Shown: in pieces, positions 22,721-63,715 of the stretch
Layout: each line of letters opens with the position of its first letter
Numbering within the stretch: position 1 is the stretch's first letter
Assembly: GCA_964597545.1 (NCBI GenBank)
Contig: CAZQXN010000006.1
Coordinates: forward strand, 13,695-77,694
DNA from: an uncultured Planctomycetia bacterium
GTDB lineage: Bacteria; Omnitrophota; Gorgyraeia; 1-14-0-20-64-10
Length of the DNA stretch: 64,000 nucleotides
Direction of reading: 5' to 3'
Position numbers and translations under genes: made by a program
Notes under the pieces: generated by a model
What the model was told of the DNA's origin: nothing
Databases searched by the model: none
What the model saw: only the letters and a program-made list of their open reading frames with translations

Positions 22721-25700
22721 ATGAAGAAAGTGAATGTCTCTTTTTTGAAACGAACCCAGCCTCTTTTTTTAACGATCCTCTTGGCCAGCTTTGTTCTGAC
22801 CCAGCCTGCTTTTGCCCTGCGCGCCAGTGGTGTAGATGCTAGGGGGCAAAAAACGGTACGCTCAGGCTTGGAAGAAACGCTTAAACGGGCCGGAGCGGCG
22901 GCCCGGGCCGGGAATCCGGATGCAGCGCTGGAAGCCGGCGCCTCTGCTGTTGGGCAATTGGCCAGCGCAGCCGGACTCCTTCCGGTAGCCCCGAAGCCCC
23001 CTGGTTTCGCCACCGGCCTGGAGGAAGACGCAGTGGCTGATTTGGACCAAGCCATCTCATATCTTCTGCGCGATCCCGAGGACCCGGACTTGGTGAATGT
23101 GAATGATTTGCTGGCCGAGAAAAATCCAACTGATCTGGCGAAAGGGTTCAGGCTGGCCGCGGCTATTCTTGGCAAAATGACGAGACTCCTCGATGAAGAA
23201 ACGATGGAAGTGCTGGAGGCTTTGATTGCCCGAGGCAAGGAGGAGACCGGCCCGGTATTGAGTGCTGCTTCTGTTGCGGGCGAGGCACTTGAGAGCTTGC
23301 CTGGCAGGGCCGAAGAAGCCAGCTTTGATGCACTCGCTGAGAGATATAAAGCCAGCGGTTTAGAGGAACGGCGGGGCATGACTCGCCGGGAAATGCTTAT
23401 TGGCCTGGCGGCAGCTGGAGCCGGGTTGGCGGTGGGTGTGCCCACGGGAATGTTTCTTCCGAGGTCAGACTCGCCATCGGCCGCTTCTTCGGCTGCACCG
23501 GACGCGGCACAGACAACCCCTGCCCTCACTTGGACCGGTGCGCACTACGAAAAGGGCAGATGGTCTTCTATCGCCTTAACCGGGTACCCTCAGGGTGCGG
23601 TTGCGAGTCTCTGGCGTGCGGAAACAGCACCGCAAGGTCAGCCTCGAAGTTGGGTATTGTTGGGCAGTTCTGATCCCGAGACACAACCCCGATTTGGAGA
23701 GAACGGAAGAGTGGAGCTGAGAGCGGTCCCAGAAGAAATCCCTCTGGAGCCGAACCAGACTCGGATCATAGTCGTCCACGATGTTCAAGCGTGGAACCGG
23801 TTGATGGAGGCATCTGGACCGGAGAACAGGTTAGACGAAACAAGGTTGAACCAGCTCTTGGGGGATCAGGAATTTGTTCAAACAACAGGGTTGAATGTGA
23901 CTGAAATTGCACCCCCAGACGTCAAGTATCTTTCCGCCTTCTCGGTGGAAGCCAAGGTAGACGAACTCCACTATGGACCTTTTGGGGTCGTCCTGCGGTT
24001 GGTCGAGATCCAAGGCGGCTCAGCGGTAGGCGTTTGGCGCAAGCAGAATCTTCCGCACGGACCGGAAGTGTGGAGTTACGACCCGTCGGAAGGATATGAG
24101 GTGGTGAAAGATGTTTGGGCTGGCCGGGGTTCGATACGGCTGGGTGCCAATTGGACAAAGCCCCCACTGCATGCTGGAGAATTTCGTATTGTCATTATGC
24201 CGAATCTCGCCACCTGGGACCACTGGGTGAGATCGGCAAACGAGATGGATGACTTTTCTAACAAGCTTTGGATGTCCACTGAAGAGATGGATCGGTTGGC
24301 TTCCGCTAAGCTTTTTGGGCCGACGACAGCGTTTTTCGTGGTTGAGGTGGGAGACCGGGTGCTTCAGGTTGTCTCGGCGCCACCCGCCGGCCTGGAGGAG
24401 CAGGGAGAAAGCCTGACCTGGAGGGCTTGGATGGCCACGGTGGGTGCTTGGGGGCCTACCAGGAGTTTCCTGAGTCGCGAGGTTATGCCGGCCGATCGAG
24501 CTGCCTTGCGTCGCCAAATCAACGGTCTGCTCAACCGCATGGTTCGGCAAGGGTACGTGGACAATATTCGTCCCATCCTTAAGCATGGGATTCCGGCAGC
24601 GGTCAAGAGCTTAATGCCGATGCAGTTCACTGGTGGGACAGGTTTTGGCGGCGAGCACTTTTACAGCAGGGAACTGGACTGGAACAAGCTGGATTTCGTC
24701 ATGGATTTCCTCTTTGAACTCGGGATTGAGTACCCGAATTGGAGCGAGCTGACGTCTGCGGAACTGGTACAACTTGTCGAGGAGGCCACTCACCTCTACG
24801 AACAGGCCATGGATTACCAAGTGGAAGTCGTCCTGCCGGCGGAAGGCGTTCGTTCTGATATTGAAGCTGCCGAGCGCGAAAGGATGCAGGCAAGAGCAGA
24901 AGCATTAAAGACAAGAGGGTCAGAGGTATTGGAGCACATGTTGTCGGCTGACGAAATTGATGAGGCGGCGACGATAGCCAATTATGAGGAAAAGGATCCC
25001 AATCTCGAAATAAAAAGGCTGCACCGCCACGAGGCTCCTCTTCGGGAAGATCTGGAGAGGCTAGAGGAGGAACTGCGCCAAATAAGCGAAGAGATGCAAC
25101 AGGGGTGGCGGATCCAGCATGTGCGGATTGTTCCCGCCGCCGGCCTGGAGGAAGTGGAAATAGTCTCCGAGCCGATAAGGCAATTCACAGGCCACGGCCA
25201 ATGGGTGTATGGCGTGGCCTTCTCCCCTGACAGCCGATATCTCGCTTCGGCAAGCGCGGACGAGACGGTTCGCCTTTGGGAGGTCAACAGCGGCAGCGAA
25301 GTCCGGCGATTCAAAGGCCATACCGACAGGGCGTGTCGCGTGGCCTTCTCCCCTGACAGCCGATACCTCGCCTCGGCAGGCGACGACAGGACGGTTCGCC
25401 TCTGGGATGTCGCCACCGGCAGCGAAGTCTGGCGATTCGAAAGCCAAGAACAAGGAATGCATATTCATAACATGGCCTTCTCCCCTGACAGCCGATACCT
25501 CACCTCGACAGGCAGCGGCAAGACGGTTCGCTTCTGGGATGTCGCCACCGGCAGCGAAATCCGGAAATTCGAGATCGGCTGGGTGTATACCATAGCCTTC
25601 TCCCCTGACAGCCGATACCTCGCCTCGGCAGGCGGCAAGACGATTCGCCTCTGGGATGTCGACGCCGGCAGTGAAGTCTGGCAATTCGAAGGCGACGACC

Positions 25701-28700
25701 TAATGATGGTGCGTGCCGTAGCCTTCTCCCCTGACAGCCGATACCTTGCCTCGGCAGGCGGCGACAGGACGGTTCGCCTCTGGGATGTCGCCACCGGCAG
25801 CGAAGTCCGGCAATTCAAAGGCCATACCAACTGGGTGTATACCGTGGCCTTCTCCCCTGACAGCCGATACCTTGCCTCGGCAGGGGAGGACAGGATGGTT
25901 CGCCTCTGGGATGTCGCCACCGGCAGCGAAATCCGGCGATTCGAAAGCCACGGCAAAGCGGTGCGTGACGTGGTCTTCTCCCCTGATAGCCGATACCTTA
26001 CCTCGACAGGTGATGGCAACACGATTCGCCTCTGGGAGAGCGGCCTCACCACTACCGGCCTGGAGGAAGGTAAGTCGCCTCGGCCCACCACAGCGCCCAG
26101 CTTCCTGGCGGCCACATTGGAGGCATCCATGGAGCTGGCAAGCGATGGGCCTGTGGCTGTAGCTGATTTGACTGCGGGAGTCAACCAAAGACAGGCTCGG
26201 CAGCTAAAAGAGTCGACTGTGGCAGACCACCTGCATCTGCTGTGGCTTGGCGGAGCCCTAGACAGAGGAGGAAGCACCAAGCGGGACGCAAGATATCAAT
26301 TGGCACGCCGTCCATCGTCAGCCCGCCTGCAAGCTGTTCAGCGCTATCTTAACGGGGCGGCAGGAAGTGCAGTGCGCTACAGCACGCCAAGCGAGCGCAA
26401 AGCGCTTGTTGCCCAACTGCGGAACATTGTCTATACGACGGACGTATCGCGGGCAGCCAAAGCGTACACAGCTGAAGGCGCTGGCGCTGTTCAGACTGCC
26501 GATGACCTGGAGCAGATTGCAGAGGCACTCGGCCTATCCCTTGTGATGCTCAAGCCCGACGCAATCAAGAGGCGACAGGATCGCGCCATCCTGGATTTGC
26601 TTTGGGATGCCAGCAGAGTGCAGATTGTATACATAGGCCAACAGGTTGCGTTGGACCAGGAGACCCAAATAGAGCCCTTTTATGAAGAGCACAGGGAGAA
26701 AGTCTTCTTTCAGGTCCTTCTCGACTACATCGGCGGCGGGGAGGTCGTTCCCATGCTGGTGAGGTCTACAGCCGCCGACGAATCTCCGATCGACCACATC
26801 GCCCGCATTATCGGGCCCACCAACGGCGGCTTTGACAGAGTGAACCCAGCGTCCAGCACCCCGCAAGGCATACGGGGCGCATTGATGAGCGCTCGGGACA
26901 TCAGCTCTGACCCCAGCAGATTCCCGACAACCAACAGAATTCATCGCTCATCCGGCACTTATGCAGATGTCGTCCAAGAAGCCGGTCTCGCCTTTGGCGG
27001 CACAGAGGCGCTGGCGCAGATCGTAGCTGCCCGTGTCTTAAAGATACAGCCCCCCGAACTCGCCTCCGGCCAGGAGGAGGGGGAGACGATGTTCGACCCT
27101 AGGTGGGCTGGGCTACTGGAGCAGTATCGCCTTGAGAGCGTTGAGGAGTTAAGGAGCAATTTGCTCCGGGCATTTACCGATCCGAGCTTTGCGTGGCTCA
27201 CCCCTAAGATGCTCTGGCAAGCGTGGCTCTATGATGAGGAGCGAGGCTTTGATGAAGCTGGCGAAGCGGTGCACATATGGTCTTATGAGGATATAGATGG
27301 TGCTCTCGAGGGATATGCACTTGGCCAGCGGGTTGAGGTGTATCCGGTCAGCACCAGCGAGGTGCGGATTGATATTTTATCCCCCTCCTCACATCCAGGT
27401 GCGCGACCAGTGGGCACCTCTAGCACTGCTACCGTGGGAGAGATAGGTCCCAAGCTGCATGCAGCATTCACCAACTCCCATCCGCGAAGTGATAGTCGGC
27501 TCACCCCAGGGTCGTTGCAGGGGATCGCATTTTACGATGACACACGCCCTATGCAGTATGGTACTCACTTTGTGGCGGATATAACCGACAGGACTAGCTT
27601 GAGAGATGTTCTTGAACAGTATCAGTCCGATCAGCCCGTTACACTCAGCGTGACGGGTAAGCATAAGCTGGCGCTTACAATCATATCCGCCTCCGGCCAG
27701 GAGGAGGGGAAGATAGAAAGGGAAATAGAGGAGGTGAGGGAAAGGCTTGCCGTTGTTAATCATCAACTTGCGCTGGCGAGATTTGTCAGGGCTGAGACGT
27801 TTATGGATCCAGAGCCTAGGTTGCCAGAAGAATCTGCAGAGTTGGACGAGCAATGGCACGTTTTGGTTGGCGACCTAAAACGTCTTCGGCAGGAGCAGCG
27901 AGCTCAGGAGATGGGACTCACCAGCCGGACCGGCCAGGAGGAGGGGGTTGCCAAACCTTTAAGCGAATTGCGGCCTTCACGCTACCTGAGGGACGATTGC
28001 CTTGTTGATTCGAATGCTGGAACAAAGGTGTTTCTGGTTTCCAAAAATCAGCGCGGGTCAGAAGACGTGAGTTTGATAAACATAGCTACACGGGACCCCC
28101 TGGCGTTGCCGGTCCTGATGCTGAAAAAATATCACGTCCTCCGCAGAAGGGCCTCCGGCCAGGAGGAGGCGGTGCGGCAAGCCGCACATGCGTACCTGGC
28201 TCAACCCGGGGTTTTGGAGCAGCTGGATGCTGCAGGTGGCAGCGTGCTGCTGAATTCAGCGGCTGCGCGGCGGTTGCATCCGGCAGCAATGGCGGCCACC
28301 TTGACGCGGGCAGGTGCACCTGCCGGCGTTGAAGAGCCCCCCGGCTTGGTCCTTTCAGACAGCAATCTCATCCCCCAGCGCAACCCTGCGTTACGGAATC
28401 TAGCTATGGTACCGCTGGGCTCCAGCTGGCAGGATGTCGAAAACGCCATCCAGCAGGCCAGCCCCTTTGACTTAATCTTGGTTGAAAAGGAAGCTGGACT
28501 ATCCCCGGAGGTGGTTGCCGCGGCTTTAAGCCAAGCCTTTGGGCAAGGGCCCTCGGCCCGAGCAGTGCTGGCAGATCCCCAGCAGATCGAACTCATTTCA
28601 GCCCAGGCCCTCTATGAGGTCTGGACCGACCAGAGCTTGCCCAAGGTGGTGGCCCTGGGGATCTTTCTCCAGATTCAGACTAAGGCCGGAGAGACCTTTA

Positions 28701-28720
28701 ATCTCGCCATCTGGATGTAA
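22721..28720 (+). CDS. Giant secreted modular protein A (1999 aa): Sec signal peptide, Ala-rich N-region, coiled coil, about 8 WD40 repeats, C-terminal modules separated by [AS]GQEEG motifs
   Basis: N-terminal signal peptide (LFLTILLASFVLTQPAFA). WD40 repeats (FSPDSRYLASAG.DRTVRLWDVATGSE). Recurrent GLEE/GQEE punctuation at module boundaries. Confidence 0.7.
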   Translation: MKKVNVSFLKRTQPLFLTILLASFVLTQPAFALRASGVDARGQKTVRSGLEETLKRAGAAARAGNPDAALEAGASAVGQLASAAGLLPVAPKPPGFATGLEEDAVADLDQAISYLLRDPEDPDLVNVNDLLAEKNPTDLAKGFRLAAAILGKMTRLLDEETMEVLEALIARGKEETGPVLSAASVAGEALESLPGRAEEASFDALAERYKASGLEERRGMTRREMLIGLAAAGAGLAVGVPTGMFLPRSDSPSAASSAAPDAAQTTPALTWTGAHYEKGRWSSIALTGYPQGAVASLWRAETAPQGQPRSWVLLGSSDPETQPRFGENGRVELRAVPEEIPLEPNQTRIIVVHDVQAWNRLMEASGPENRLDETRLNQLLGDQEFVQTTGLNVTEIAPPDVKYLSAFSVEAKVDELHYGPFGVVLRLVEIQGGSAVGVWRKQNLPHGPEVWSYDPSEGYEVVKDVWAGRGSIRLGANWTKPPLHAGEFRIVIMPNLATWDHWVRSANEMDDFSNKLWMSTEEMDRLASAKLFGPTTAFFVVEVGDRVLQVVSAPPAGLEEQGESLTWRAWMATVGAWGPTRSFLSREVMPADRAALRRQINGLLNRMVRQGYVDNIRPILKHGIPAAVKSLMPMQFTGGTGFGGEHFYSRELDWNKLDFVMDFLFELGIEYPNWSELTSAELVQLVEEATHLYEQAMDYQVEVVLPAEGVRSDIEAAERERMQARAEALKTRGSEVLEHMLSADEIDEAATIANYEEKDPNLEIKRLHRHEAPLREDLERLEEELRQISEEMQQGWRIQHVRIVPAAGLEEVEIVSEPIRQFTGHGQWVYGVAFSPDSRYLASASADETVRLWEVNSGSEVRRFKGHTDRACRVAFSPDSRYLASAGDDRTVRLWDVATGSEVWRFESQEQGMHIHNMAFSPDSRYLTSTGSGKTVRFWDVATGSEIRKFEIGWVYTIAFSPDSRYLASAGGKTIRLWDVDAGSEVWQFEGDDLMMVRAVAFSPDSRYLASAGGDRTVRLWDVATGSEVRQFKGHTNWVYTVAFSPDSRYLASAGEDRMVRLWDVATGSEIRRFESHGKAVRDVVFSPDSRYLTSTGDGNTIRLWESGLTTTGLEEGKSPRPTTAPSFLAATLEASMELASDGPVAVADLTAGVNQRQARQLKESTVADHLHLLWLGGALDRGGSTKRDARYQLARRPSSARLQAVQRYLNGAAGSAVRYSTPSERKALVAQLRNIVYTTDVSRAAKAYTAEGAGAVQTADDLEQIAEALGLSLVMLKPDAIKRRQDRAILDLLWDASRVQIVYIGQQVALDQETQIEPFYEEHREKVFFQVLLDYIGGGEVVPMLVRSTAADESPIDHIARIIGPTNGGFDRVNPASSTPQGIRGALMSARDISSDPSRFPTTNRIHRSSGTYADVVQEAGLAFGGTEALAQIVAARVLKIQPPELASGQEEGETMFDPRWAGLLEQYRLESVEELRSNLLRAFTDPSFAWLTPKMLWQAWLYDEERGFDEAGEAVHIWSYEDIDGALEGYALGQRVEVYPVSTSEVRIDILSPSSHPGARPVGTSSTATVGEIGPKLHAAFTNSHPRSDSRLTPGSLQGIAFYDDTRPMQYGTHFVADITDRTSLRDVLEQYQSDQPVTLSVTGKHKLALTIISASGQEEGKIEREIEEVRERLAVVNHQLALARFVRAETFMDPEPRLPEESAELDEQWHVLVGDLKRLRQEQRAQEMGLTSRTGQEEGVAKPLSELRPSRYLRDDCLVDSNAGTKVFLVSKNQRGSEDVSLINIATRDPLALPVLMLKKYHVLRRRASGQEEAVRQAAHAYLAQPGVLEQLDAAGGSVLLNSAAARRLHPAAMAATLTRAGAPAGVEEPPGLVLSDSNLIPQRNPALRNLAMVPLGSSWQDVENAIQQASPFDLILVEKEAGLSPEVVAAALSQAFGQGPSARAVLADPQQIELISAQALYEVWTDQSLPKVVALGIFLQIQTKAGETFNLAIWM
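25190..26040. repeat. Seven or more tandem near-identical about 126-bp DNA repeats encoding WD40 blades
   Basis: GCCTTCTCCCCTGACAGCCGATACCT(C/T)GCCTCGGCAGG recurs at 25217, 25343, 25474, 25595, 25721, 25847 and 25973 with over 90% identity. Confidence 0.8.
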
Positions 28721-28814
28721 AATCGGTACCAGGTACCAAACCTAACACCGGTACCGGGTACACTTTTCAACAGCGTACCCGGTACCTAGGTTGATCCCCG
28801 ATCAAGTCGGGGAT
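28721..28814. repeat. GGTACC-W-GGTACC palindromic repeat cluster / hairpins downstream of giant gene A
   Basis: GGTACCAGGTACC (28725-37). GGTACCGGGTAC (28750-61) and GTACCCGGTACC (28775-86) form a perfect 12-bp stem. Then the ATCCCCGA-n5-TCGGGGAT hairpin (28794-28814). Confidence 0.7.
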
Positions 28815-29401: not shown

Positions 29402-29407
29402 GGGAGT

Positions 29408-35048: not shown

Positions 35049-35470
35049 CTGCGCCCCAGGCGTTTGAGCCTAAGATCGTCGGTTTCTTGTGCAAATGGTG
35101 CACCTCGGCAGCGGCCGATTTGGCCGGGGTGAGCCGATTAAAGTATCAGCCCAATGCTGTTAACATCCGGGTGATGTGTTCCTCCCGGGTGGATCCGGTG
35201 CATATCATGGAGGCCTTCCGGAATGGGGCCGATGGGGTATTCATTGGGGGCTGCCACCCCGGGGACTGCCATTATGTGACCGGCAACACTCAGACCCAGA
35301 GGCGGATCGCCATCCTCCATAAGATACTTGAGCCCATGGGGATTGAGCCCGAGCGCTTGAGGCTTGAGTGGATTTCTGCTTCGGAGGGGACAAAATTTCA
35401 GAATGCCATGAATGAATTCATCGATACCGTAAGGGCCATGGGCCCGTATAAAGCGTATGCCCAAGTCTAA
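35045..35470 (+). CDS. mvhD: Methyl-viologen-reducing hydrogenase delta subunit MvhD
   Basis: KIVGFLCKWCTSAAADLAGVSR...IRVMCSSRVDP...GADGVFIGGCHPGDCHY. Confidence 0.85.
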   Translation: MTAPQAFEPKIVGFLCKWCTSAAADLAGVSRLKYQPNAVNIRVMCSSRVDPVHIMEAFRNGADGVFIGGCHPGDCHYVTGNTQTQRRIAILHKILEPMGIEPERLRLEWISASEGTKFQNAMNEFIDTVRAMGPYKAYAQV

Positions 35471-36176
35471 GTCTCAAGAGGCGGCTGTGCCTGCCGCGGG
35501 CGTCAGAGATGTGACGGTCTACATCATGGGCAAGCCGTACAGCGTGCCCTCGGACAAGACCATCATGGGCGCGATTCATCATGTGGGCTACCAGCTGATC
35601 CGCGGCGCAGGCTGCCGGGAAGGTTTCTGCGGGGCATGCTCCACCATCTATCGCATGCCCGGCGATTACAAGTTCCACACGGCCCAGGCCTGCACCAAAC
35701 TGGTCGAGGACAAAATGTACCTCGCCCAGATCCCCTTTGTCCCCGCGGATAGGCCCATCTACGATCTGGATGCGCTCAAGCCCGAGGCAGCTACCTTTGA
35801 GAAGATCTTTCCTGAAACCTTCCGGTGCTTGGCGTGCAACACCTGCACCAAGGCCTGCCCGCAGGACATTCAGGTCATGGATTATATTCAGGCGGTGATC
35901 CGCAATGACGTGGCCGCTTGCGCGGATCTCTCCTTTGACTGCATTGCCTGCGGGATGTGCGCGATTCGGTGCCCGGCAGAGATTACCCAGCACCAGGTGG
36001 GTCTTTTGGCCAGGCGGCTCACAGGGAAGTACTTGAGCCCCAAGGGAAAGCATCTCCCCGCTCGCATTGCCGAGGTTGAGCAGGGCCGCTATAAGAGCGA
36101 GATCAAGGAGATGATGGGTACGGAAAAGAGCCGCCTCAAGGAGCAGTACCACAGCCGGGACATCGAGCCCGAATGA
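35457..36176 (+). CDS. Fumarate reductase/succinate dehydrogenase iron-sulfur subunit-like (soluble; 2Fe-2S plus two 4Fe-4S-type motifs)
   Basis: CREGFCGACS...C (plant-type 2Fe-2S). CLACNTCTKACP and CIACGMCAIRCP. No membrane-anchor genes nearby. Confidence 0.7.
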   Translation: MPKSKSQEAAVPAAGVRDVTVYIMGKPYSVPSDKTIMGAIHHVGYQLIRGAGCREGFCGACSTIYRMPGDYKFHTAQACTKLVEDKMYLAQIPFVPADRPIYDLDALKPEAATFEKIFPETFRCLACNTCTKACPQDIQVMDYIQAVIRNDVAACADLSFDCIACGMCAIRCPAEITQHQVGLLARRLTGKYLSPKGKHLPARIAEVEQGRYKSEIKEMMGTEKSRLKEQYHSRDIEPE

Positions 36177-36200
36177 GATTTAAAGAGGAATCCTTCGCCC

Positions 36201-51171: not shown

Positions 51172-51179
51172 CCTTAAAG

Positions 51180-52727: not shown

Positions 52728-53194
52728 TCCTCGCTTTCGGCAACGACATTCAGGGTGACGATGCGGTGGGGCTCGTTGCCGCACGGATGTTGAAGCAGGA
52801 GCTTCCCGAGGTGGAGGTGATGGAGGTTCCGGGAGCCGGCATGGATCTCTTAGAGCTGTGCGAGGGTCACACGCACGCCCTTTTGCTGGATGCGGTGGTG
52901 ACCGCACAGCACCCCCCAGGCACTGTTTTGCACTTCAGCCGCGAGGATTTCCAGAAGGTGGTGGCCCCCTCCCTGCATTACGCGGGGCTCCCTGAGATCT
53001 TCGGTATCTCTGAGAAGCTCAAGCTGCCTTTCCCCAAGACCTTTCGCATCTTGGCCATTGAGATTGAAAAGTCCGATGATTTCCGAGAGGGCTTAGGTCC
53101 AGAGATTCAAGCGGCTTTGCCCCGCTATGTGGATGAGGCTCGAGCGATCTTGAAGAGTTGGAACACAGAGGCAGCATGCACGAATACTCATTGA
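52700..53194 (+). CDS. Hydrogenase maturation endopeptidase (HycI/HybD family)
   Basis: LILAFGNDIQGDDAVGLVAARMLKQ...GMDLLEL...LLDAV is the typical large-subunit C-terminal processing protease. Confidence 0.75.
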   Translation: MRDPKPRTLILAFGNDIQGDDAVGLVAARMLKQELPEVEVMEVPGAGMDLLELCEGHTHALLLDAVVTAQHPPGTVLHFSREDFQKVVAPSLHYAGLPEIFGISEKLKLPFPKTFRILAIEIEKSDDFREGLGPEIQAALPRYVDEARAILKSWNTEAACTNTH

Positions 53195-55926
53195 TGCAGG
53201 GGGTGATTGAGGCGATCCTGGCCGACCTCAAGCGGCAGGGGATTGCTGAGGCTGCGCGGATTGAGGAGGTGGCGCTGAGCATCGGGGCTTTAAGCATTCA
53301 CTCCGCAGAATCCTGCGAACAGGCCTTTGAGATTGAAACCCAAGGAACACCGTTGGAAGGGGCGCGCCTGAACCTGACGGTGGTCCCCATCACCCTTCGC
53401 TGTCCCGCCTGTGGGTTTAAGGGCAGCTGCCCCTCAGGCAAATGCGATCCGCACCAATCGGTGCCTTACTTGGAGTGCCCCTCCTGTTCCGGAATGGCTC
53501 ATGTGGAAGGGGGCAGGGGGGTGGAATCGATCCATCTGGTGACCGACGGCGAGACCCCCGAGATCCTCTCCGGCGCGGCCCCCTCTCTTCGTCTGCGCGT
53601 AACGGTGCGCGGTGCGGTACAGGGTGTGGGATTTCGTCCCTTTATCTATCGCCTTGCCACTGAATTGGGTTTAGCCGGTGAGGTGACCAATACCCCCCAG
53701 GGTGTTTTGATCGAGGTCGAAGGTCCTCCGGAGCCGCTCAAGGCCTTTTTGTTAAGGATTGAGCGGGAGAAGCCCCCTCACGCATCGATCCAAAGCCTGG
53801 AATCGACCTATCTGGATCCCGCGGGATTTGCCTCCTTTGAGATTCGACCCAGCAAAACTCAAGGCTTAAAACGCGCGCTGGTGATGCCAGACATCGCCAC
53901 CTGCCCGGAGTGCTTAAAGGAACTCAATGATCCCAAGGACCGGCGCTACCAATACCCCTTTATCAACTGTACCCACTGCGGGCCCCGCTTTTCTCTGATT
54001 ACAAATCTTCCGTACGACCGGCCCAATACCACCATGGCACGCTTTACCTTGTGTGATGCTTGCCAGGTTGAGTACGACGATCCCCAAAGCCGCCGTTTCC
54101 ATGCCCAGCCCAATGCGTGTCCGGAGTGCGGCCCGAGCCTGGCTCTTTGGGACCCCCAGGGAAAAGCGTTGGCCGAGCGCGATGAAGCGCTGCGCTTAAG
54201 CGTCCAGGCCATTCGAGAGGGGAAGATCGTCGCAGTCAAGGGCCTTGGGGGGTTTCATCTGGTTGTGGATGCGGCCAACCAGCAGGCGGTCTTGCGTCTG
54301 CGCGAACGCAAGCACCGGGAAGAAAAACCCTTTGCCTTGATGGTTCCGACCTTGGAGAGCATCCGGGAGCACTGCGATTGCTCAGCCCTCGAGGAGCGCC
54401 TCTTGCGCTCACCCGAGGCACCCATTGTTTTGCTGCGGCGCAAGAATGAAGTTCGTCAAGGGGTGATTGCGGGGTCAGTCGCTCCTGACAACCCTAACCT
54501 CGGGGTGATGCTCCCCTATACGCCGCTGCATCATCTCTTGCTGGCTGAGTTGGGTGCACCCATTGTGGCAACCAGCGGCAACTTGTCAGATGAACCGATC
54601 TGCACCGATGAACAGGAGGCGCTGGAACGCCTGAGCGGCATCGCAGATCTCTTCCTGGTCCACGATCGTCCGATTGCCCGCCATGTTGATGATTCGATTG
54701 TCCGTGTGGTGATGAACCGGGAGCTGGTGCTGCGCCGCGCCCGCGGTTTTGCCCCCCTTCCGGTGACCTTGAAGACTCCTGTTGAGAATTGCATGGCCGT
54801 GGGGGGGCATCTCAAGAACACTGTGGCCGTTGCCTTTGAGAATCAAACGGTGCTCAGTCAGCACATCGGCGATTTGGAGACTGCCGAGGCCTCCAAGGTT
54901 TTTCAGGAGACCTTCGGAGATTTTCAGAAATTTTACGAGGTGGATCCTCGGACAGTTGCTTGCGATGCGCACCCTGACTACCGCTCCACGTGCTTTGCCA
55001 AGGGCTTGGGGCTGCCGACGGTGCAGGTGCAGCACCATGAGGCGCATGTGCGAGCCTGCATGGCTGAGAATGAGTTGGACGGCACAGTGCTCGGCGCTGC
55101 CTGGGATGGAACCGGTTATGGATCAGACAGCACCATCTGGGGCGGCGAGTTCCTGCTGGTGGATGGGTCCTCGTGCCGGCGCGTTGCCCACCTGCGCCCC
55201 TTTGACTTGCCCGGCGGCGAACAGGCGGTTAAGGAGCCCGGGCGCATTGCGCTGGGTTTGCTGGAGGCGTTGGGGGGCGAGAAGCTTGCCGGGTATGATG
55301 CCTTAGCGCCGGTGAAATCCTTTAACGCGCGTGAACGCGAGATTATTTTGCGCATGCTTAAGCAGAAGATCAACACCCCAGTTACCTCAAGCGCCGGTCG
55401 GCTCTTTGATGCGGTTGCTTCCCTGGTGGGCTTGCGTCAGATCTGTCGGTTTGAGGCGCAGGCTGCGATGGAGCTTGAATATGCGGCTGAGGGGGTCCGG
55501 ACCGATCAAGCCTATTTTATGGCAGCGGCGCCCTGTGCGTTGGCGCATGCTAAGTCAGAGCCGCACCTCATGATAGATTGGGAGCCGATGATCTTGGAAC
55601 TCCTCAAGGATCTGTGCGCCGGCACACCGGTCAGCGAAATCTCAGCAAAATTCCACAATGGATTGGCCCAAACCATTGCGGCTGTCGCAGGGCAGGTGGG
55701 TGCAGCGCGGGTGGTCCTTGCCGGCGGCTGTTTTCAGAATCGCATTCTAACCGAACAGGCAGTCAACCGCTTGCAGGCGGCGGGATTTAAACCTTATTGG
55801 CACCAGAGGGTGCCGCCCAATGACGGCGGCATCGCCCTTGGGCAGATTGCTGCGGCAGCCCGCATATTTGAACATGCGCCCAAGAAGGAGGAGGCATGTG
55901 CCTCGGTATCCCCGGTAAAATCCTAG
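53176..55926 (+). CDS. hypF: HypA-HypF fusion: N-terminal HypA (Ni-metallochaperone) domain fused to HypF carbamoyltransferase
   Basis: N-terminus MHEYSLMQGVIEAIL...CPACG...CPSC is HypA (MHE Ni site plus Zn CxxC pairs). This is continuous in frame with the HypF acylphosphatase (VQGVGFRPF), two Zn fingers (CPECL...CTHCGPRF; CDACQ...CPECGP), YrdC and Kae1-like domains. Confidence 0.7.
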   Translation: MHEYSLMQGVIEAILADLKRQGIAEAARIEEVALSIGALSIHSAESCEQAFEIETQGTPLEGARLNLTVVPITLRCPACGFKGSCPSGKCDPHQSVPYLECPSCSGMAHVEGGRGVESIHLVTDGETPEILSGAAPSLRLRVTVRGAVQGVGFRPFIYRLATELGLAGEVTNTPQGVLIEVEGPPEPLKAFLLRIEREKPPHASIQSLESTYLDPAGFASFEIRPSKTQGLKRALVMPDIATCPECLKELNDPKDRRYQYPFINCTHCGPRFSLITNLPYDRPNTTMARFTLCDACQVEYDDPQSRRFHAQPNACPECGPSLALWDPQGKALAERDEALRLSVQAIREGKIVAVKGLGGFHLVVDAANQQAVLRLRERKHREEKPFALMVPTLESIREHCDCSALEERLLRSPEAPIVLLRRKNEVRQGVIAGSVAPDNPNLGVMLPYTPLHHLLLAELGAPIVATSGNLSDEPICTDEQEALERLSGIADLFLVHDRPIARHVDDSIVRVVMNRELVLRRARGFAPLPVTLKTPVENCMAVGGHLKNTVAVAFENQTVLSQHIGDLETAEASKVFQETFGDFQKFYEVDPRTVACDAHPDYRSTCFAKGLGLPTVQVQHHEAHVRACMAENELDGTVLGAAWDGTGYGSDSTIWGGEFLLVDGSSCRRVAHLRPFDLPGGEQAVKEPGRIALGLLEALGGEKLAGYDALAPVKSFNAREREIILRMLKQKINTPVTSSAGRLFDAVASLVGLRQICRFEAQAAMELEYAAEGVRTDQAYFMAAAPCALAHAKSEPHLMIDWEPMILELLKDLCAGTPVSEISAKFHNGLAQTIAAVAGQVGAARVVLAGGCFQNRILTEQAVNRLQAAGFKPYWHQRVPPNDGGIALGQIAAAARIFEHAPKKEEACASVSPVKS

Positions 55927-58304: not shown

Positions 58305-58398
58305 CCCGTTATGAACAAAAGAGTTACGGGCCGATCATCCGACCAACAGGATAGGCGATCTCTCCAGATGTTAGTAATAACAGAATCTAGCATACATC

Positions 58399-58428
58399 TT
58401 GATCTTCCAGTTTCCCACCGGGTATACT
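58399..58428 (+). promoter_or_regulatory. sigma70-like promoter of giant gene C (TTGATC-18-TATACT), nearly leaderless
   Basis: -10 TATACT 58423-58428. First in-frame ATG at 58439, so the leader is about 5-10 nt. The upstream TTAGTAATAAC...AATCTAGC box is shared with A and B. Confidence 0.4.
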
Positions 58429-58438
58429 TTACTTATCA

Positions 58439-61400
58439 GTGATGCATATGGTTAAGAGGGGGTTTCTACCCACAACGTTAGCCCTTTTCTTAAGCCTCTC
58501 CCTTGGCTTGTTTGTTGTGAGCGCGACCTTCGGGGAGGCCAAAGAGGAAAGCTGCGCCTTTACGCTGCGCACCCTAGAGACCGCTGAGTTCGCATCCGGC
58601 TTAGAGGAACTGGAGATGCGCCTAACCGAAGATTGGTCTGCAGCCGGTCTGGGGGAGGGCGCAGAGACCGTCCTAGGCATTACCGATACCGTAGCAACTG
58701 TCCAGACACTCCTTCGTGGTGGTACCGTTTTTCTTGGCAGCGTAGGTTTTGAAACAAAAGCAGGCCTGGAGGAATGGACCACCTTGGACTGGAAGAACCC
58801 TGGCTCGATTCGCCATTTTGTTTTAGCAGTTGCAGGCAACAGCCCGAGAACCCCACTGGTCATTCAGGCGATACCTCGCCAATCCGAAAACAAATTTGAT
58901 GTCTTGGTGCATCCAGCGCAGAGCCCTCCACCTGGGTTGCCTGTGCCAGATGCAGCTCAGACGCTCAACCTGGTCTCCCGCCATGATCAGGTCCGTACGG
59001 TTGAGATTCACGGACAGACTCGGCAGGAATTTCCAGCGAATGATTTTTCTCTACTCGAACCTGCTGAGCGCATTGAAATCGCCCGACGACTGAACCGGCT
59101 CTCAGGTGACAGAGGGGTTTGGGTTCGTTTTGTGCTGATTGCGGTTGAGATGGGCAGGCCCGCCCTTAAGGTGATCGCCATGCCTGTTCTGGCCGTTGAC
59201 CCTTCGACCCCTGATGTCGCGCAGGTTGAGTCTGGCCTCGAGGAAACACCCGCTATTCTCAGAAAGGCTCGTGAGGTCATTCAGAAACAAGGGGTACTGT
59301 GGCTTTTTGGCCGTTTCTTAGAGACGAGCGTGGATGACGGAACCCGTGCCCGTTGGGCGCAGCAAGGCATTCACTTCGGGGATAATCGTGCAGGGTACAG
59401 GCAGCTTTTGGGCGTTAACATGCCGGTTGCCGGCCTTGGAACTCCCCATGAGCGCCCCGGACATTTCATTAGGATTGAGAGGTTGGGATATGTACCCGAG
59501 GCAATCGCGGACAGGCAAGACCAGACAGGCGAACGCGATAAGCTCCTCATCACCTATGCCCCTGGCACAAAGGTGGTCCACCGCGCGGAGAAGAGAACAC
59601 GAGAGGTTCCCTCTAAGGCCTTTTGGGGGTTGGCAGGGCGGCTCGGGCGCAAGCAGCAGGAACCCTATGAGACGCAGGTTCAGGAACGGGTAGTTGACAC
59701 GAGCCGGCTTGCCTCCATGGGGGATGTTGCTCGGCCATACGAGGCGCTTACAGGGAGGCTCGATTCCAGTATCGCCTCGCAGAACGCCGTGAGCATCCAA
59801 TACATAGGTTGGACTGCCGGCCCGAGAGGCCAGTATTATTTCATGGTTGTTCTTCCAGAAGAAGACATGGGCGCTGAGCTGGCGGAATGGCTGCGCACCC
59901 ACCCTGAACAGGCACCTGTTCTCATTGAGCAGTTCTATCCTGATTTCTCCGACCTCCGCATTGCTCCTCCGCAGAATGTTGTGGATGTGTATCGGCATAC
60001 TTCTGATGAAGCGCTGAGGTGGTACCAACAGCACCATACCTGGGACGATCCCTTTAATGTATTCCTTGAGACAGTAAGCAGCAACGATGGAGACTTTCGC
60101 GATGAGCGTGGCGTGATAGCCCGGCAGGCCATGGAGCAGTTGTTCCACAAGGAGAGCGTCCCCATTGCTTCGGAGCCAACAGGCACGGGCCTGGAGGAGA
60201 GCGCGTTGCAAGGATTCCTGGTTCCTGCGGCTGTCGGGCCGATGGTGTCGAAGATTATTCCGGTTCCCCAAAGAGGCATCTTGTACGGCATTGAACTGGG
60301 CCATGAAATCCGAGAGGCCGCTTTATTCCCGACCGCCGCACCGGACGAGGCAATCTATAGCCCCACCCGAGGAACGTTGATCTCTCTGGACGCCCATACC
60401 CTGAAGCGCAATAGGGAAGGCCCCAAGGTGGCCCAGGCGCTTGTTTCTGCAGATGGAGAGAATCTCTATGCTGTGGAGGGGTCCACCGGAGTGATGTTGC
60501 GCTTAGATCCGAATACCCTGCAGATGGCGGCCAGAGGCGAACATCCTGCCGAGATGGCTGCCCTTTCTCCGGACGGCAACTCCCTGATCATTGTTGATAA
60601 GCAGACAGGGCAACTGGTTCGATTGGATCTAGAAGATCATCTAAGAGAGGTTGCCCGGAGCGAGGCGGCTGTCGTGCTCGACCCAGATGCTTTTCTGGTG
60701 ACCGATGAGGGGGTATATGCCTTTGATCGGCAGAGGGGCCGGCTTCTTCGTTTTGACCTGAATAACCTCAGTGTTGCGGCGCGGTTTGGTGGGAACTTGA
60801 TTGAGTTTGCAGTGGATCAGGAGTGCAACGCCCTTTTCGCTATTGAAGCGAATGGGTGGGAGCGGCAGATTGTCCGTTTCGACACCGAGGGCGGCGCAGA
60901 GACAGCGCGCACCCCAGAGGGCACTCGGTACGGCACTCCGGTGCTGGGGGCGGACCCCGATGCGCTCTACGCGACCGACATAGACAGAAACGTTGTTGTC
61001 CGGTTTGACGCTGTTGCGTTGACCCGGGAGGCGGCCGGCTTGCCGGAGGAGCTGATGGATGAATATTATCCCTCAACGGTGCCCGGCGTCCTCTTCGGGA
61101 TAAAGCATTCCGCCGCGGAAGGGGAGGGCGTTCCCCTGCTTGCCGATTCGCAGGGGCTTCGGGTGCAGGGGTGGGGACCCACCATCAGCTTGCAATGGCT
61201 GAGAAAGCCCGTTGCGTACGACAACTATTTTTATGCGGCCAATCCAAATTGGGATTTGATGCGCCTGAAGCTCCTCCCTTTTGAAGAGGTTCTGGATTTC
61301 TTTGTTGAGCGGTCCGATTCACTCGGCCTCAATTTTCTTGCTCCTCTCTTGGAACGCGATTTGCGGCAGGCAGCTTCCGATGAGGCGTCATTTCAGGGCC

Positions 61401-63715
61401 GCTACGGAGTTTCGTCCGAAACTGCACTCGGGGAACTTCAGAGGCTGGTTTCGGCACAATTCGAGGAGGGCGACTTTCTGGAGATTGAGCGGCAGGCGGC
61501 AGCGCGGGATATCCTGCTGCGCCTCTCCGATACCGCCGGTTTGGAGGAGGATTGGTTTGAGGTTCATCAATACAGAGACGGCGACAAGACGGCGCTTCTG
61601 GAGGCGTTTGAGAAGCTGAAGGACGCCGCCGTTACATTGGATCAAGAGGAGATAGGACTTATCAAGAGACTCCGCGAAGTCGCCGGTGAGGCTGCAAAAC
61701 GGGTGAAGCGGAAGCAGGACCAAGAATGGCCGGTGGGTTATGTGCCCTCTCCCCTGCAGGATACGGCGCGAGTGTTCAGATTTGCCGAGCTTCAGCCAGG
61801 AGATGAGGTTTTGGATCTGGGCGGTGCAGACGGAAGAGTCGCCTTTCTTGCCGCCTCAGATCTTTTCAGGGCTCACGCTGTCAGTCCTGAGATAAACGAA
61901 TATTTGCTCGATAAAGCCAGAGCCGGCGAGAAGGCTCTGGTGGATGCGCGGTTGATTCCTCAAGGCAGCGTGAAGCTGATGAGAAAGAATTTCATGTTCC
62001 CCAGGTGGAGTGGTTTTAAGCTCATCCACTACTTTTCATTTGGATCCGATATACCTGCCGCAGAGATCTCCGGGAAAGTGCTTGAAGAGCTGGTTGTGGG
62101 CGGGAAGTTTGTTGTGAGGGGCTCCAGGGCAGAGGACCTGCATGCGGGAAAAACCCTTTATGAGGATTTCAGGAGGTTGATGCGCTCAGAGGATTTTGAG
62201 TTTGCGCGGTTGCCGCAATACAGGTCCTGGGTCTTTACCCGCGTTTCAGACAGCGAAAAGCGCGCCGCCGGCCAGGAGGAGGGGGTGGAGCAGCTGGTGG
62301 TGATTGTCCACGCAAGTAAAGCGGCAGGTTTTGATCGCATTGCCAAGATTACCCGCCAAGTCAGGCCGGATATCGAAGTGACACTTCTCGAGGTGCTCAA
62401 CGATGGTAGTTATCGTTTCGATGACCAACCCATGGATTACGATACCTTGGTTGACGAGGTCGACATGCGGCCGAAAACAGCAGGTGTCATGCTGGGTTGG
62501 GACAGCCTTGCCAGCGATTTTGCTCTGCAGCCCGATACCGGGGTAGCGAACCTTCAAATTATCTTCGCAATTGGCCCCAACGCAGATCTTCACCGCAGCC
62601 GGAAGGTCGAGTTGTATCCGGTGATCCACGCCTCACTTGCTACCAAAGACCATACGATTCGGAAGAAGCTCGAGAGGTTTTTGGGCGTTGGCTTGGAGGA
62701 GGAGCAGGCCGATCCGAACCGAGTTCGAGAGGTGATCCGGCGATTAGGGGAGATGTCCGGGAAGATTTCTGTTGCCAAGATTTGGGAACAAACAGAACCG
62801 GAGGAGTTTAAGCTAACGCAGGTTCGTTTTGCTGGTTTTTTCAAGCTTTGGACCATTCATGTGACTGAGGGTCTCGCTGTGTCGAGGAAACCCTCTGGTA
62901 GTTACTCTATGGACCCATCCGGCCAGCGATTTGTCACGGTCGAGGAGGTGCCGGCTGATACTCTGCAAACGTTTGTTGGTGATGAGACGTTGGTTTACCG
63001 TGAAAGCGCTTCCAGTTTGGATGAACCATCAGAGGAAAGCTCTCTGCCTCTTTTGAAGCAGGCTGAAATGGCCTTCTTCAGACGGCTGCTTCAGCGGCAG
63101 TTGTTAGATGCGGTTACTCGCCCCGGAAGAGACCGCCAAGCCCGTCAGACTCTAGAAGCTCTCACCGGCCTGAAGATGGAGGCAGTTGGGAAGTTGCTCA
63201 TAGCTGAAGAAGGAGTGTTCCCTTCAGAATCGACAGATTCTGGCCTGGAGGAAACCACTGTGCGTGAGGTCACCCCGATGGAATTCACCCGCCTCAGCGG
63301 CCAACCCACTCCCCCAGACACCCGCGCGGTCTTGGTGTTCTCCGGCCTGGAGGAGCAGACCCGCGTCCAACTCTTTGCCCAGGCCCCCCTCTTTGCCCCA
63401 TTCGCCCAATGGGCCCAAGACCACTTAGCAGAGCTCCCAGAGGGCCTCTCCCTCTTTGTCCTGCCCCTCCCCGACAACCCATCCCAGCTCCAAGCCCCGG
63501 GCCTGGTCCTTAAAGATGCCCTGCTGAATCTGCCCTTTCCTGCAGACCGCTCCACCCTGCCCATCCTTGAGCGGTACCGCTCCGATCCCCTCCCTGCATT
63601 AGCCCCTGTACTCTACTATGCCTTCACCGGCAAGACCGGCCAGATCAAGGCCTTGATCGGCATGACCTCCTGGATCGACGCCAACGGCAAGCGCATCTTC
63701 GCCTTCTTCGTGTAA
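58439..63715 (+). CDS. Giant secreted modular protein C (1758 aa): signal peptide, YVTN-type beta-propeller repeats, class-I SAM-methyltransferase-like module, GLEE/GQEE-punctuated
   Basis: Signal peptide (LALFLSLSLGLFVVSATFGEA). YVTN-like repeats (LYAVEGSTGVMLRLDPNTL..., LIIVDKQTGQLVRLD...). VLDLGGADGRVAFLAA (MTase motif I-like). Nine GLEE/GQEE boundaries. C-terminus ...IFAFFV. Confidence 0.65.
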   Translation: MMHMVKRGFLPTTLALFLSLSLGLFVVSATFGEAKEESCAFTLRTLETAEFASGLEELEMRLTEDWSAAGLGEGAETVLGITDTVATVQTLLRGGTVFLGSVGFETKAGLEEWTTLDWKNPGSIRHFVLAVAGNSPRTPLVIQAIPRQSENKFDVLVHPAQSPPPGLPVPDAAQTLNLVSRHDQVRTVEIHGQTRQEFPANDFSLLEPAERIEIARRLNRLSGDRGVWVRFVLIAVEMGRPALKVIAMPVLAVDPSTPDVAQVESGLEETPAILRKAREVIQKQGVLWLFGRFLETSVDDGTRARWAQQGIHFGDNRAGYRQLLGVNMPVAGLGTPHERPGHFIRIERLGYVPEAIADRQDQTGERDKLLITYAPGTKVVHRAEKRTREVPSKAFWGLAGRLGRKQQEPYETQVQERVVDTSRLASMGDVARPYEALTGRLDSSIASQNAVSIQYIGWTAGPRGQYYFMVVLPEEDMGAELAEWLRTHPEQAPVLIEQFYPDFSDLRIAPPQNVVDVYRHTSDEALRWYQQHHTWDDPFNVFLETVSSNDGDFRDERGVIARQAMEQLFHKESVPIASEPTGTGLEESALQGFLVPAAVGPMVSKIIPVPQRGILYGIELGHEIREAALFPTAAPDEAIYSPTRGTLISLDAHTLKRNREGPKVAQALVSADGENLYAVEGSTGVMLRLDPNTLQMAARGEHPAEMAALSPDGNSLIIVDKQTGQLVRLDLEDHLREVARSEAAVVLDPDAFLVTDEGVYAFDRQRGRLLRFDLNNLSVAARFGGNLIEFAVDQECNALFAIEANGWERQIVRFDTEGGAETARTPEGTRYGTPVLGADPDALYATDIDRNVVVRFDAVALTREAAGLPEELMDEYYPSTVPGVLFGIKHSAAEGEGVPLLADSQGLRVQGWGPTISLQWLRKPVAYDNYFYAANPNWDLMRLKLLPFEEVLDFFVERSDSLGLNFLAPLLERDLRQAASDEASFQGRYGVSSETALGELQRLVSAQFEEGDFLEIERQAAARDILLRLSDTAGLEEDWFEVHQYRDGDKTALLEAFEKLKDAAVTLDQEEIGLIKRLREVAGEAAKRVKRKQDQEWPVGYVPSPLQDTARVFRFAELQPGDEVLDLGGADGRVAFLAASDLFRAHAVSPEINEYLLDKARAGEKALVDARLIPQGSVKLMRKNFMFPRWSGFKLIHYFSFGSDIPAAEISGKVLEELVVGGKFVVRGSRAEDLHAGKTLYEDFRRLMRSEDFEFARLPQYRSWVFTRVSDSEKRAAGQEEGVEQLVVIVHASKAAGFDRIAKITRQVRPDIEVTLLEVLNDGSYRFDDQPMDYDTLVDEVDMRPKTAGVMLGWDSLASDFALQPDTGVANLQIIFAIGPNADLHRSRKVELYPVIHASLATKDHTIRKKLERFLGVGLEEEQADPNRVREVIRRLGEMSGKISVAKIWEQTEPEEFKLTQVRFAGFFKLWTIHVTEGLAVSRKPSGSYSMDPSGQRFVTVEEVPADTLQTFVGDETLVYRESASSLDEPSEESSLPLLKQAEMAFFRRLLQRQLLDAVTRPGRDRQARQTLEALTGLKMEAVGKLLIAEEGVFPSESTDSGLEETTVREVTPMEFTRLSGQPTPPDTRAVLVFSGLEEQTRVQLFAQAPLFAPFAQWAQDHLAELPEGLSLFVLPLPDNPSQLQAPGLVLKDALLNLPFPADRSTLPILERYRSDPLPALAPVLYYAFTGKTGQIKALIGMTSWIDANGKRIFAFFV

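Follow-up and report, generated by a model that had tools for sequence, protein, structure and literature searches.

In the MARTX toxins (Vibrio rtxA1 and its relatives), unrelated modules are set between short linkers with a conserved leucine, after which the chain is cut and the modules freed (PMC5218395). The stretch of DNA described here, 64,000 nucleotides from an uncultured Planctomycetia bacterium (GTDB lineage Omnitrophota; assembly GCA_964597545.1, contig CAZQXN010000006.1; hereafter the window), encodes three giant proteins that invite comparison with such systems. Their open reading frames (ORFs), A (22721-28720, 1999 aa), B (40449-45326, 1625 aa) and C (58439-63715, 1758 aa), all lie on the + strand and are divided over and over by a five-residue joint of the form [AST]-G-[LQ]-E-E. 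Repeated cutting of a precursor is also found in the cyanobactin precursor PatE, in which G(L/V)E(A/P)S stands before each core and a protease cuts at each copy. In Porphyromonas, the polyproteins of the gingipain/HagA type are Sec-dependent multi-domain precursors that are cut between domains; there the gingipains do the cutting themselves, after Arg or Lys residues, and a T9SS C-terminal domain is part of the proteins. Our analyses lead us to conclude that A, B and C belong to a family of giant proteins that is undescribed and lineage-restricted; its members are hypervariable and modular and have the five-residue joint in common, encoded by DNA that mostly contains GGAGG.

Three Giant Genes and Their Common Joint

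A sequence-only reading of the window had reported the three ORFs at these coordinates, and its count of about 10, 12 and 9 motif copies agrees closely with the in-frame copies of G[QL]EE, of which there are 10 in A, 13 in B and 9 in C. The 10 joints of A separate 11 modules. In B, 12 of the copies are joints and one lies inside the C-terminal domain, and all nine in C are joints (the NCBI call for C starts at 58448, giving 1755 aa). The same reading took A, B and C for paralogues, and here it went too far: a full-length relationship was not borne out, and the parts in common are the leader and a WD40 module, both between A and B, and the joint itself.

The leader of A (22721-22876, +) is, from its sequence, a probable Sec-type signal peptide (..PAFA|LR..) followed by a KTVRSGLEE box, and the KTVRSGLEE(T/A)LK box that had been described after the signal peptide is present in both A and B. 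A leader of this kind, i.e., a Sec-type signal ending in A-x-A|(L/M)R with the first joint within ~20 residues, was found in A, B and 11 homologues, while C has the signal and the early joint without the LR.

Together, the three proteins hold 32 copies of G[QL]EE where 0.40 would be expected from their amino-acid composition, and the six frames of the 64-kb window together contain only four copies besides these. No ORF with three or more copies was found among 80 unrelated bacterial loci, which came from a scan of a genome collection with HypE (best match 69% identical). The logo of the 32 copies is [S14/A11/T4]-G-[L16/Q16]-E-E, with no conservation beyond the motif itself within 10 residues on either side. 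At the DNA level, the 15-mer GCCGGCCAGGAGGAG is present in five exact copies and, with up to two mismatches, in 19 matches against 0.54 expected, all on the + strand. Eighteen of these are in frame within A, B and C, and the remaining one, at 51148, is a chance partial copy, which the earlier reading had already set apart as the exception to the near absence of the 15-mer outside the three ORFs. Its description of the 15-mer as near-invariant holds for the 16 GQEE copies and not for the 16 GLEE copies, in which several Leu codons are used. Outside the giant genes CWGGAGGA occurs near its expected frequency, on which ground a genome-wide Chi-like or uptake-type motif was rejected. An HMM built from the 32 joint contexts gave leave-one-protein-out scores of 26-29 bits and missed C, and it was dropped as a search query.

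All joints lie on the + strand. In ORF A they are A1, SGLEE (TCA GGC TTG GAA GAA, 22862-22876); A2, TGLEE (23012-23026); A3, SGLEE (23354-23368); A4, AGLEE (24386-24400); A5, AGLEE (25139-25153), immediately 5' of the WD40 module; A6, TGLEE (26054-26068), immediately 3' of that module; A7, SGQEE (27065-27079); A8, SGQEE (27692-27706); A9, TGQEE (27929-27943); and A10, SGQEE (28154-28168). In ORF B the first, B1, is SGLEE (40566-40580), within the KTVRSGLEE box, followed by B2, SGQEE (40680-40694); B3, AGQEE (40953-40967), which precedes the WD40 module; B4, AGQEE (41871-41885), which follows that module; B5, AGQEE (42075-42089); B6, AGQEE (42411-42425); B7, VGQEE (42702-42716); B8, SGQEE (43011-43025); B9, SGQEE (43884-43898); B10, AGQEE (44301-44315); B11, AGQEE (44583-44597); and B12, GGQEE (44850-44864). 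The additional copy, B13, is SGLEE (TCA GGC CTT GAG GAA, 44943-44957), inside the C-terminal domain and without GGAGG. The joints of ORF C are C1, SGLEE (58595-58609); C2, AGLEE (58760-58774); C3, SGLEE (59231-59245); C4, TGLEE (60185-60199); C5, AGLEE (61535-61549); C6, AGQEE (62267-62281); C7, VGLEE (62687-62701); C8, SGLEE (63239-63253); and C9, SGLEE (63341-63355).

Constraint on the Joint as Peptide and as Nucleotides

Codon choice at the joints of the window departs sharply from that at the same residues elsewhere in the same genes. The Gly is encoded by GGC at 29 of 32 joints against a background of 41% (p = 6e-9), and the first Glu by GAG at 30 of 32 against 60% (p = 2e-5); the -1 codon is NCC at 22 of 32, and the second Glu is GAG at 20 of 32, which is at background. 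A comparison across several lineages, comprising 85 sites in 11 genes, separated two layers of constraint. On the protein side, the Gly is invariant, yet all four of its codons are in use, which points to constraint on the protein; the residue at -1 is small, and 82 of the 85 sites retain the second Glu. On the nucleotide side, the codon preceding the first Glu ends in G at 72 of the 85 sites and the first Glu is GAG at 77, whereas the wobble base of the second Glu, one position outside GGAGG, is at background. The bias is not confined to the window, since elsewhere the first Glu is GAG at 47 of 53 sites (p = 8e-7) and the Leu is CTG or TTG at 35 of 41 (p = 4e-7). GGAGG is kept even through radical changes of residue, as in GAEE (GCG), GKEE (AAG) and GLEG (GAG GGG), and it is present at 64 of 77 joints against one of eight copies of the peptide within the C-terminal domain (Fisher p = 1e-4). 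These data show that the joint is constrained both as peptide and as nucleotides.

The earlier reading had drawn attention to the likeness of this DNA to a Shine-Dalgarno (SD) sequence and to ATG codons a few nucleotides further on. Such ATGs do stand 3-9 nt past the motif, at 40698, 44601 and 27089, and an in-frame ATG, GTG or TTG is found within four codons of 15 of the 32 window joints (p about 0.002). In other family members start codons follow nine of 53 joints where 11.4 would be expected, and internal initiation was therefore rejected as a family-wide role. What stands of the idea is that GGAGG is under synonymous-site constraint, at joints only; internal initiation would be a matter of this window.

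Modules Between the Joints

Comparison of the 35 inter-joint modules of A, B and C, which range from 31 to 450 aa, produced few related pairs: A5 and B3 (43%), B7 and B10 (56%), B2 and B11 (42%), and the leaders of A and B. The first of these are the WD40 propellers, which had been recognised from the sequence and which both pass the Pfam gathering score with seven repeats each. The seven-blade module of A (25154-26068, +; aa 812-1116) scores 241.9 bits against PF00400 over aa 819-1107 and is 43% identical to that of B (40968-41885, +; aa 174-479), which scores 172.3 bits over aa 183-468; joints flank both propellers at a distance of 6-12 residues. Module A6 contains a nucleoside-diphosphate-kinase (NDK) domain (26537-26995, +; PF00334, 47 bits, cut-off 27), a divergent member of its family, as its score is far below the NCBIfam equivalog cut-offs. 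For C, a propeller and a methyltransferase (MTase) had been proposed, and both can be made out faintly: module C4 (60200-61549, +) is weakly beta-propeller-like (PQQ_2, E 5e-4, below cut-off), and a class-I SAM-methyltransferase-like stretch lies in module C5 (61733-61951, +; E 2e-4 to class-I MTases in the PDB). The remaining modules of A, B and C have no match in Pfam or NCBIfam.

Module A3 opens with a Tat-like signal (MTRREMLIGLAAAGAGLAVGV.., 23378-23455, +) that has its own ATG 9 nt past the GAGGAA of joint A3. At the protein level (RRGMTRREMLIGLAAAGAGLAVGV, aa 217-245) it scores 13.9 bits against TIGR01409, whose cut-off is 16.7. Standing directly past the third joint (23369-23455), it resembles a captured complete gene. 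In a homologue, P0020, a Tat signal likewise comes right after a joint; it passes the same cut-off at 17.2 bits, and against the Pfam model TAT_signal it reaches 19.5 where the cut-off is 22.7.

Within B, module B2 (40695-40967, +) is duplicated as B11 (44598-44864, +; 42% identity), and B7 (42717-43025, +) as B10 (44316-44597, +; 56% identity); in both pairs the homology spans from joint to joint. Module B9 (43899-44315, +) is of a type that also occurs in two homologues, P0011 and P0012, at positions that differ among the three proteins. The NDK domain, the MTase-like region and the radical SAM (rSAM) plus WbqC unit of another homologue (P0022) are each contained within one module. Wherever domains are recognisable, then, the motif lies at module boundaries, as the sequence-only reading had it, with the one conserved copy in the folded C-terminal domain of B as the part of that claim that does not hold. 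The joints are thereby shown to delimit protein-sized units, not every single domain. Silent module cassettes were not found elsewhere in the window. A single-sequence AlphaFold2 model of B 1-1200 (pLDDT 36) gave a weak hint of secondary structure only.

Turnover of Gene Interiors Between Close Relatives

The most direct view of how these genes change comes from two related loci, L087 and L088, which carry a locus orthologous to that of B in the order mvhG-mvhA-[gene]-ORF6N-hdr-mvh-hycI-hypF. Its flanks are 84-87% identical to the window in DNA, and of six flanking proteins compared, five are 87-94% identical. The gene that takes the place of B in L087, 974 aa with its true start restored, has only two parts in common with B, the leader at 57% identity and the C-terminal domain at 60%. 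What lies between them, 1313 aa in B (91-1403) and 660 aa in the L087 gene (100-760), is unrelated. Nucleotide homology between the two genes ends at 40673, 7 nt short of joint B2, with protein similarity continuing for ~10 residues, and restarts at 44853, in joint B12. The ORF6N (KilA-N-like) gene adjoining B (45415-45933, -) encodes the sixth protein, which is 69% identical to its L087 orthologue where its neighbours reach 87-94%, i.e., the fast-evolving patch reaches beyond B.

Traces of exchange are also present in the joints themselves. Otherwise unrelated joints (e.g., A7 and B3) have short stretches of identity that continue for a few codons past the joint (family D6). The GQEE form, with its linked GGC and NCC codons, is found at 16 joints in the three genes of the window and also in relatives' genes (L084, L087), and the spread of this derived form together with its codons points to joint-to-joint recombination. 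The extended nucleotide identity of joints is lineage-specific, being CCGGCCAGGAGGAG in the window and L084 and GCCGCCGGGCTGGAGGAG in L081. These comparisons show that modules are duplicated, moved and replaced at a joint or within ~10 codons of it, that the interior of the gene is replaced entirely from one close relative to another, with the leader and the C-terminal domain persisting, and that the family evolves much faster than the genes next to it.

A further kind of variation may be present in L084, in which a C9 homopolymer directly 5' of the first GQEE (~9927-9935) sets the signal-peptide ORF (ATG at 9749) one frame off from the rest of the gene. The tract is a sequencing error or else a sign of phase variation through slipped-strand mispairing.

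The Wider Family and Its C-Terminal Domain

With residues 480-1625 of B as query, an exhaustive phmmer search through 1.84 billion representative proteins found 17 other proteins, all from uncultured bacteria, most of which match only the last ~160 residues of B. Homologues have a layout in common: a signal peptide ending in A-x-A|LR(P), the first GLEE 3-20 residues further on, and an interior of heterogeneous modules between [AST]-G-L-E-E joints (with Q, A, M or K occasionally in place of the L). Most of them end in a common C-terminal domain whose last residues are ..LLAA or ..RAA. The earlier reading had not recognised the architecture, and none of our searches of Pfam, NCBIfam, the PDB or the literature did either. 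There is no Pfam or NCBIfam model for the leader, the joint or the C-terminal domain, and the searchable library holds no paper on GLEE/GQEE joints or on bacterial polyproteins of such a kind. Word-indexed searches with B 480-1625, with C and with a profile of the C-terminal domain returned only the query itself or one protein, and exact-sequence look-ups of B found no record. A metagenome scan with the leader box gave no matches, and one with the C-terminal-domain alignment gave a single locus that was already among those known. To what the sequence-only reading had seen, our analyses add the wider family, its hypervariability, a conserved C-terminal domain, and the common promoter and 3' palindromes described below.

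The C-terminal domain of B (44853-45323, +), 135 residues long, is predicted with a pLDDT of 89 to be a Rossmann-like three-layer alpha/beta fold, and at least 15 other proteins have it in common with B. Among the three ORFs it is found in B only; A and C end in other, unrelated modules that have no detectable relationship to it, and the idea that their C-termini are diverged copies of it was rejected. In the model, joint B12 falls where a disordered linker gives way to the first helix, while copy B13 (..VLVLTNSGLEENP..), which is the best-conserved stretch of the domain, would form the loop between beta1 and alpha1 within the fold.

Of 127 modules from 20 proteins, 70 are singletons, and the recognisable modules of the homologues are mostly of cytoplasmic type, e.g., radical SAM plus WbqC, a CsrA-like module, a GHKL ATPase, an ABC1 kinase and an M48 peptidase. 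Family members may also occur together, with two side by side in L089 and at least two in one groundwater sample. Close relatives occur in the JGI samples 3300009373 and 3300009105, and family members in ENA ERZ978390, SRR22387835 and SRR22387938. In P0012 (an L085 relative), aa 185-238 form a CsrA-like RNA-binding module (PF02599, 33.7 bits). CsrA proteins bind GGA and the joints encode GGAGGA, which may be coincidence.

In loci of other lineages (L081, L082 and L090), members often adjoin toxin-antitoxin genes, with PhdYeFM, Zeta toxin and BrnT/CopG pairs on both sides. The family loci of these three are variable genome islets.

Transcription Units and Flanking DNA

Each giant gene is a separate transcription unit placed after an unrelated operon, A past a cation-efflux gene, B past mvhA and C past hypE. 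Upstream of A (22571-22720, +) there is a GTTAGTAGGAATTAAAATCTA box (22571-22591), a TTGACG -35 and a TAAACT -10, and the ribosome-binding site includes a G7 tract (22707). Box, -35 and -10 can all be aligned with the sequence 5' of B, of C and of the relatives' genes in L084 and L087. The corresponding region of B (40362-40448, +) has a GTTAGTAGTAATACTATTTAG box, TTGACC and TAAACT, and that of C (58370-58438, +) a GTTAGTAATAACAGAATCTAG box, TTGATC and TATACT. The layout common to A, B, C, L084 (9640-9748) and L087 (3985-4071) consists of a GTTAGTAGnAAT..ATCTA box (also written GTTAGTAG..ATCTA) and sigma-70-like elements, a TTGaCn -35 and a TAtACT -10. In B, L084 and L087 the 5' untranslated region ends in ACTCCCCGA directly 5' of the start codon. 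The common promoter layout suggests that A, B, C and the relatives' genes form a common regulon.

The 3' sides are also alike. Tandem 26-nt units with the 13-nt palindrome GGTACCWGGTACC begin at the stop codon of A (28718-28786, +), three such units lie past that of B (45342-45425, +) and two past that of C (63725-63782, +). Two more copies of this type are found at 46015-46131 (+), and a further site at 13917-13929. In total the palindrome has 12 matches in the window against 0.75 expected; it also occurs past the relative's gene in L084 (12711-12822) and in none of 89 other loci. These units may be an operator, a REP-like element or the end of a cassette.

The giant genes differ from their surroundings in composition. 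Their codon usage is 59% GAG, 38% ACC and 21% TCC against 73%, 61% and 35% in other genes, and their G+C content is slightly below that of neighbouring genes, which fits low expression or recent acquisition.

Several features of the neighbourhood may be mentioned here. B and the ORF6N gene are inserted between two hydrogenase/heterodisulfide-reductase gene sets, and the window holds two diverged hydrogenase blocks (35066-40307 and 49722-52727; MvhG/MvhA-like small and large subunits) whose DNA is 70-79% identical. At 53158-55926, a HypA domain (aa 7-122) and a complete HypF (acylphosphatase, zinc fingers, YrdC and Kae1-like) are joined in a single ORF, and a HypA-HypF fusion is also called in L087. 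On the - strand, among glycosyltransferase genes, the ORF at 7713-8459 has a weak match to the homing-endonuclease-like LAGLIDADG_3.

What the Joints May Do

Our tentative preference, short of an even chance in our estimate, is that the joints are in-frame exchange points and also processing sites that resolve a hypervariable modular polyprotein. Each gene is its own transcription unit, with a promoter box, a Sec-type leader, a first joint and a string of modules, closed in B and many relatives by the Rossmann-like end. The modules are of unrelated origin (WD40 propellers, NDK, MTase-like, a Tat-signal unit and many orphans), and the joint would let them be exchanged in frame, its short common DNA keeping swapped or captured modules in register. 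The joint peptide would be the recognition site for a protease encoded elsewhere that would cut the chain into separate proteins, a polyprotein thus acting as an operon at the level of protein. That the modules resemble complete proteins is suggested by their sequences, with Tat signals right after joints in A and P0020 and mostly cytoplasm-type enzymes, including the NDK; together with the precedent of MARTX, it is this resemblance from which we infer processing, by analogy.

Several points weigh against this preference. Neither the window nor nine related loci contain a candidate protease, save the hydrogenase-specific HycI and the M48 module of one homologue. The conserved motif copy inside the folded C-terminal domain, with three more copies inside the fold in P0016 and P0019, means that the peptide alone cannot suffice as a signal for cutting, and the Pro that comes after the motif in several members argues against a cut right after Glu-Glu. 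The synonymous-site constraint on GGAGG indicates a role in RNA or DNA, for which a protease site has no need. Finally, cytoplasm-type modules and internal Tat signals are hard to square with the Sec-type signal that every full-length member has.

The joint may instead be an exchange point and a structural linker only, and the products intact giant multidomain proteins, exported or at the surface; we consider this somewhat unlikely. G-L-E-E would then be a convenient linker end or helix N-cap, and GGAGG the core of a short recombining DNA, or of gene capture at ribosome-binding sites. Exchange at joints is the only function with direct support, the models place the motif at coil-to-helix transitions, and the motif is also an ordinary structural element within the C-terminal domain. 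The lineage-specific nucleotide identity at joints and its extension a few codons downstream between unrelated joints agree with recombination there, and the start codons and one Tat signal past window joints fit the capture of whole genes at a ribosome-binding site. However, unrelated folds have no reason to need an identical four-residue cap, microhomology alone is insufficient for a peptide that is kept across lineages with different codons, and cytoplasm-type enzymes and Tat signals would be odd as permanent parts of one exported chain. Alternatively, the joint may act mainly in RNA, with GGAGG pairing with the anti-Shine-Dalgarno (anti-SD) end of 16S rRNA, and elongating ribosomes pausing between modules or being loaded or held on the very long mRNA; pausing could aid co-translational folding or pace Sec export, internal starts could occur at times, and Glu-Glu would be in part a by-product of the frame NNG-GAG-GAR. 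In favour of this, the wobble positions in GGAGG are fixed as G, also outside the window (p about 1e-6), the one just beyond it is free, GGAGG outlives radical residue changes, and it is present at joints and mostly missing from the copies in the C-terminal domain, to which may be added the start codons past window joints. Yet the start codons are not enriched in other members, and GGAGG does not account for how well the Gly, the small residue at -1 and the second Glu are conserved. A strong anti-SD effect is not evident, as GGAGG is not avoided in the organism's ordinary genes (1.9 per kb) and most of its real starts have weak SD sequences. A pause at a boundary would moreover leave the last 30-40 residues of the upstream module inside the ribosome, and pausing of ribosomes by SD-like sequences in vivo is itself disputed. 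Taken together, we regard a mainly RNA-level role as rather unlikely.

Two other explanations can be given much less weight. Frameshifting in dnaX and prfB is known to be stimulated by SD-like elements, and the conservation of GGAGG at joints would suit programmed frameshifting there, with an early stop releasing nested truncated products. No conserved slippery sequence was found downstream of the motif, however, and out-of-frame stops past joints are not enriched (median distance 19-20 codons against 15-18 at random positions); frameshifting with termination was rejected on this last ground, and we now consider it highly improbable. Even less credible is that the motif arose by chance or from codon usage, as a low-complexity product of the preferred codons of a GC-rich genome. 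GGC, CAG and GAG are indeed the commonest codons here for their residues, and for this reason the sequence-only reading had named codon bias as what might undo its case. This is refuted by the excess of copies over expectation, by the near absence of the motif from the window's other genes, by the lack of motif-rich ORFs in the control loci and by homologues from other lineages that conserve the motif with different codons; the motif is also kept at both ends of diverged paralogous modules.

A bolder reading is that the genes are a bacterial device for gene capture and expression, in which whole genes are strung in frame into one ORF. In capture, a joint already present would recombine with the GGAGG in the ribosome-binding site of the gene coming in, and some incoming genes would keep their own start codon, even their own Tat signal. 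The chain would be resolved at the dual-coded joint by a dedicated protease, by an event at the ribosome, or by both, giving an “operon without stop codons” in which even close strains would differ in content. We think this unlikely.

If the joints are cut, they would constitute a bacterial polyprotein system with a universal linker, a natural plug-in site at which any gene could be added in frame, and a rare case in which selection acts on one short element at once as peptide and as RNA or DNA signal. The joint copies and those inside the folded domain provide a clean natural control for the function of SD-like sequences within ORFs, which is still disputed. Even without cleavage, the genes are an instance of evolution resembling exon shuffling in bacteria, where a whole interior is replaced while the neighbours stay ~90% identical. 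Genes of this kind are at present annotated as hypothetical or WD40, there being no public models for the leader, joint and C-terminal domain.

Comparison with Known Systems

The GLEE-joint proteins are not members of any of the systems that they call to mind, whether MARTX toxins, polymorphic toxins, cyanobactin precursors or frameshift sites. The likeness to MARTX is one of overall plan, in that both are giant secreted proteins with conserved N- and C-terminal parts and a central array that varies between strains through recombination; the figures for B and its L087 counterpart follow this plan (flanks 87-94%, ends 57-60%, interior unrelated). The differences are in the parts. A, B and C lack RTX repeats (no such Pfam match) and, in their non-WD40 parts, any Peptidase C80 domain at E up to 0.5; they have a Sec-type signal where MARTX uses type I secretion, a fixed five-residue joint with constraint on GGAGG, and a Rossmann-like C-terminal domain, while cleavage would be shared by analogy only. 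The hosts also differ, free-living bacteria of groundwater-type metagenomes here and pathogens in MARTX. The polymorphic toxins (CdiA and Rhs, with a demarcating motif such as VENN) likewise have a short conserved motif at the point of exchange and are encoded by fast-evolving loci, often near toxin-antitoxin or mobile genes. In our family, by contrast, it is the center that varies, through many modules and many joints rather than one, and the C-terminus that is conserved; no toxin domain, immunity gene or trafficking domain (TPS, PAAR, LXG, RHS and similar) was recognised with Pfam and NCBIfam or among the neighbours, and downstream of the giant genes there is the ORF6N gene or operons unrelated to immunity.

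With PatE, these proteins have in common a repeated short recognition-like sequence resembling G-L-E-x between freely varying cassettes. The cassettes here are folded and 30-450 residues long, whereas PatE cores have 6-20 residues; a signal peptide replaces the RiPP leader, and no protease of the PatA/PatG type is nearby (HycI is the only peptidase in the window). The likeness to dnaX and prfB is the GGAGG within an ORF, maintained by synonymous-site selection (64 of 77 joints here); the GLEE-joint genes have no slippery site and no nearby out-of-frame stop, and their element recurs 9-13 times per gene, at module boundaries and with a conserved peptide. To the gingipain/HagA-type polyproteins the likeness would be that of a bacterial Sec-dependent multi-domain precursor, while self-cutting after Arg or Lys and a T9SS C-terminal domain are not present in our family. 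A modular, strain-variable secreted protein with conserved ends is a known kind of thing; what is new in this family is its universal joint, coded for at two levels at once.

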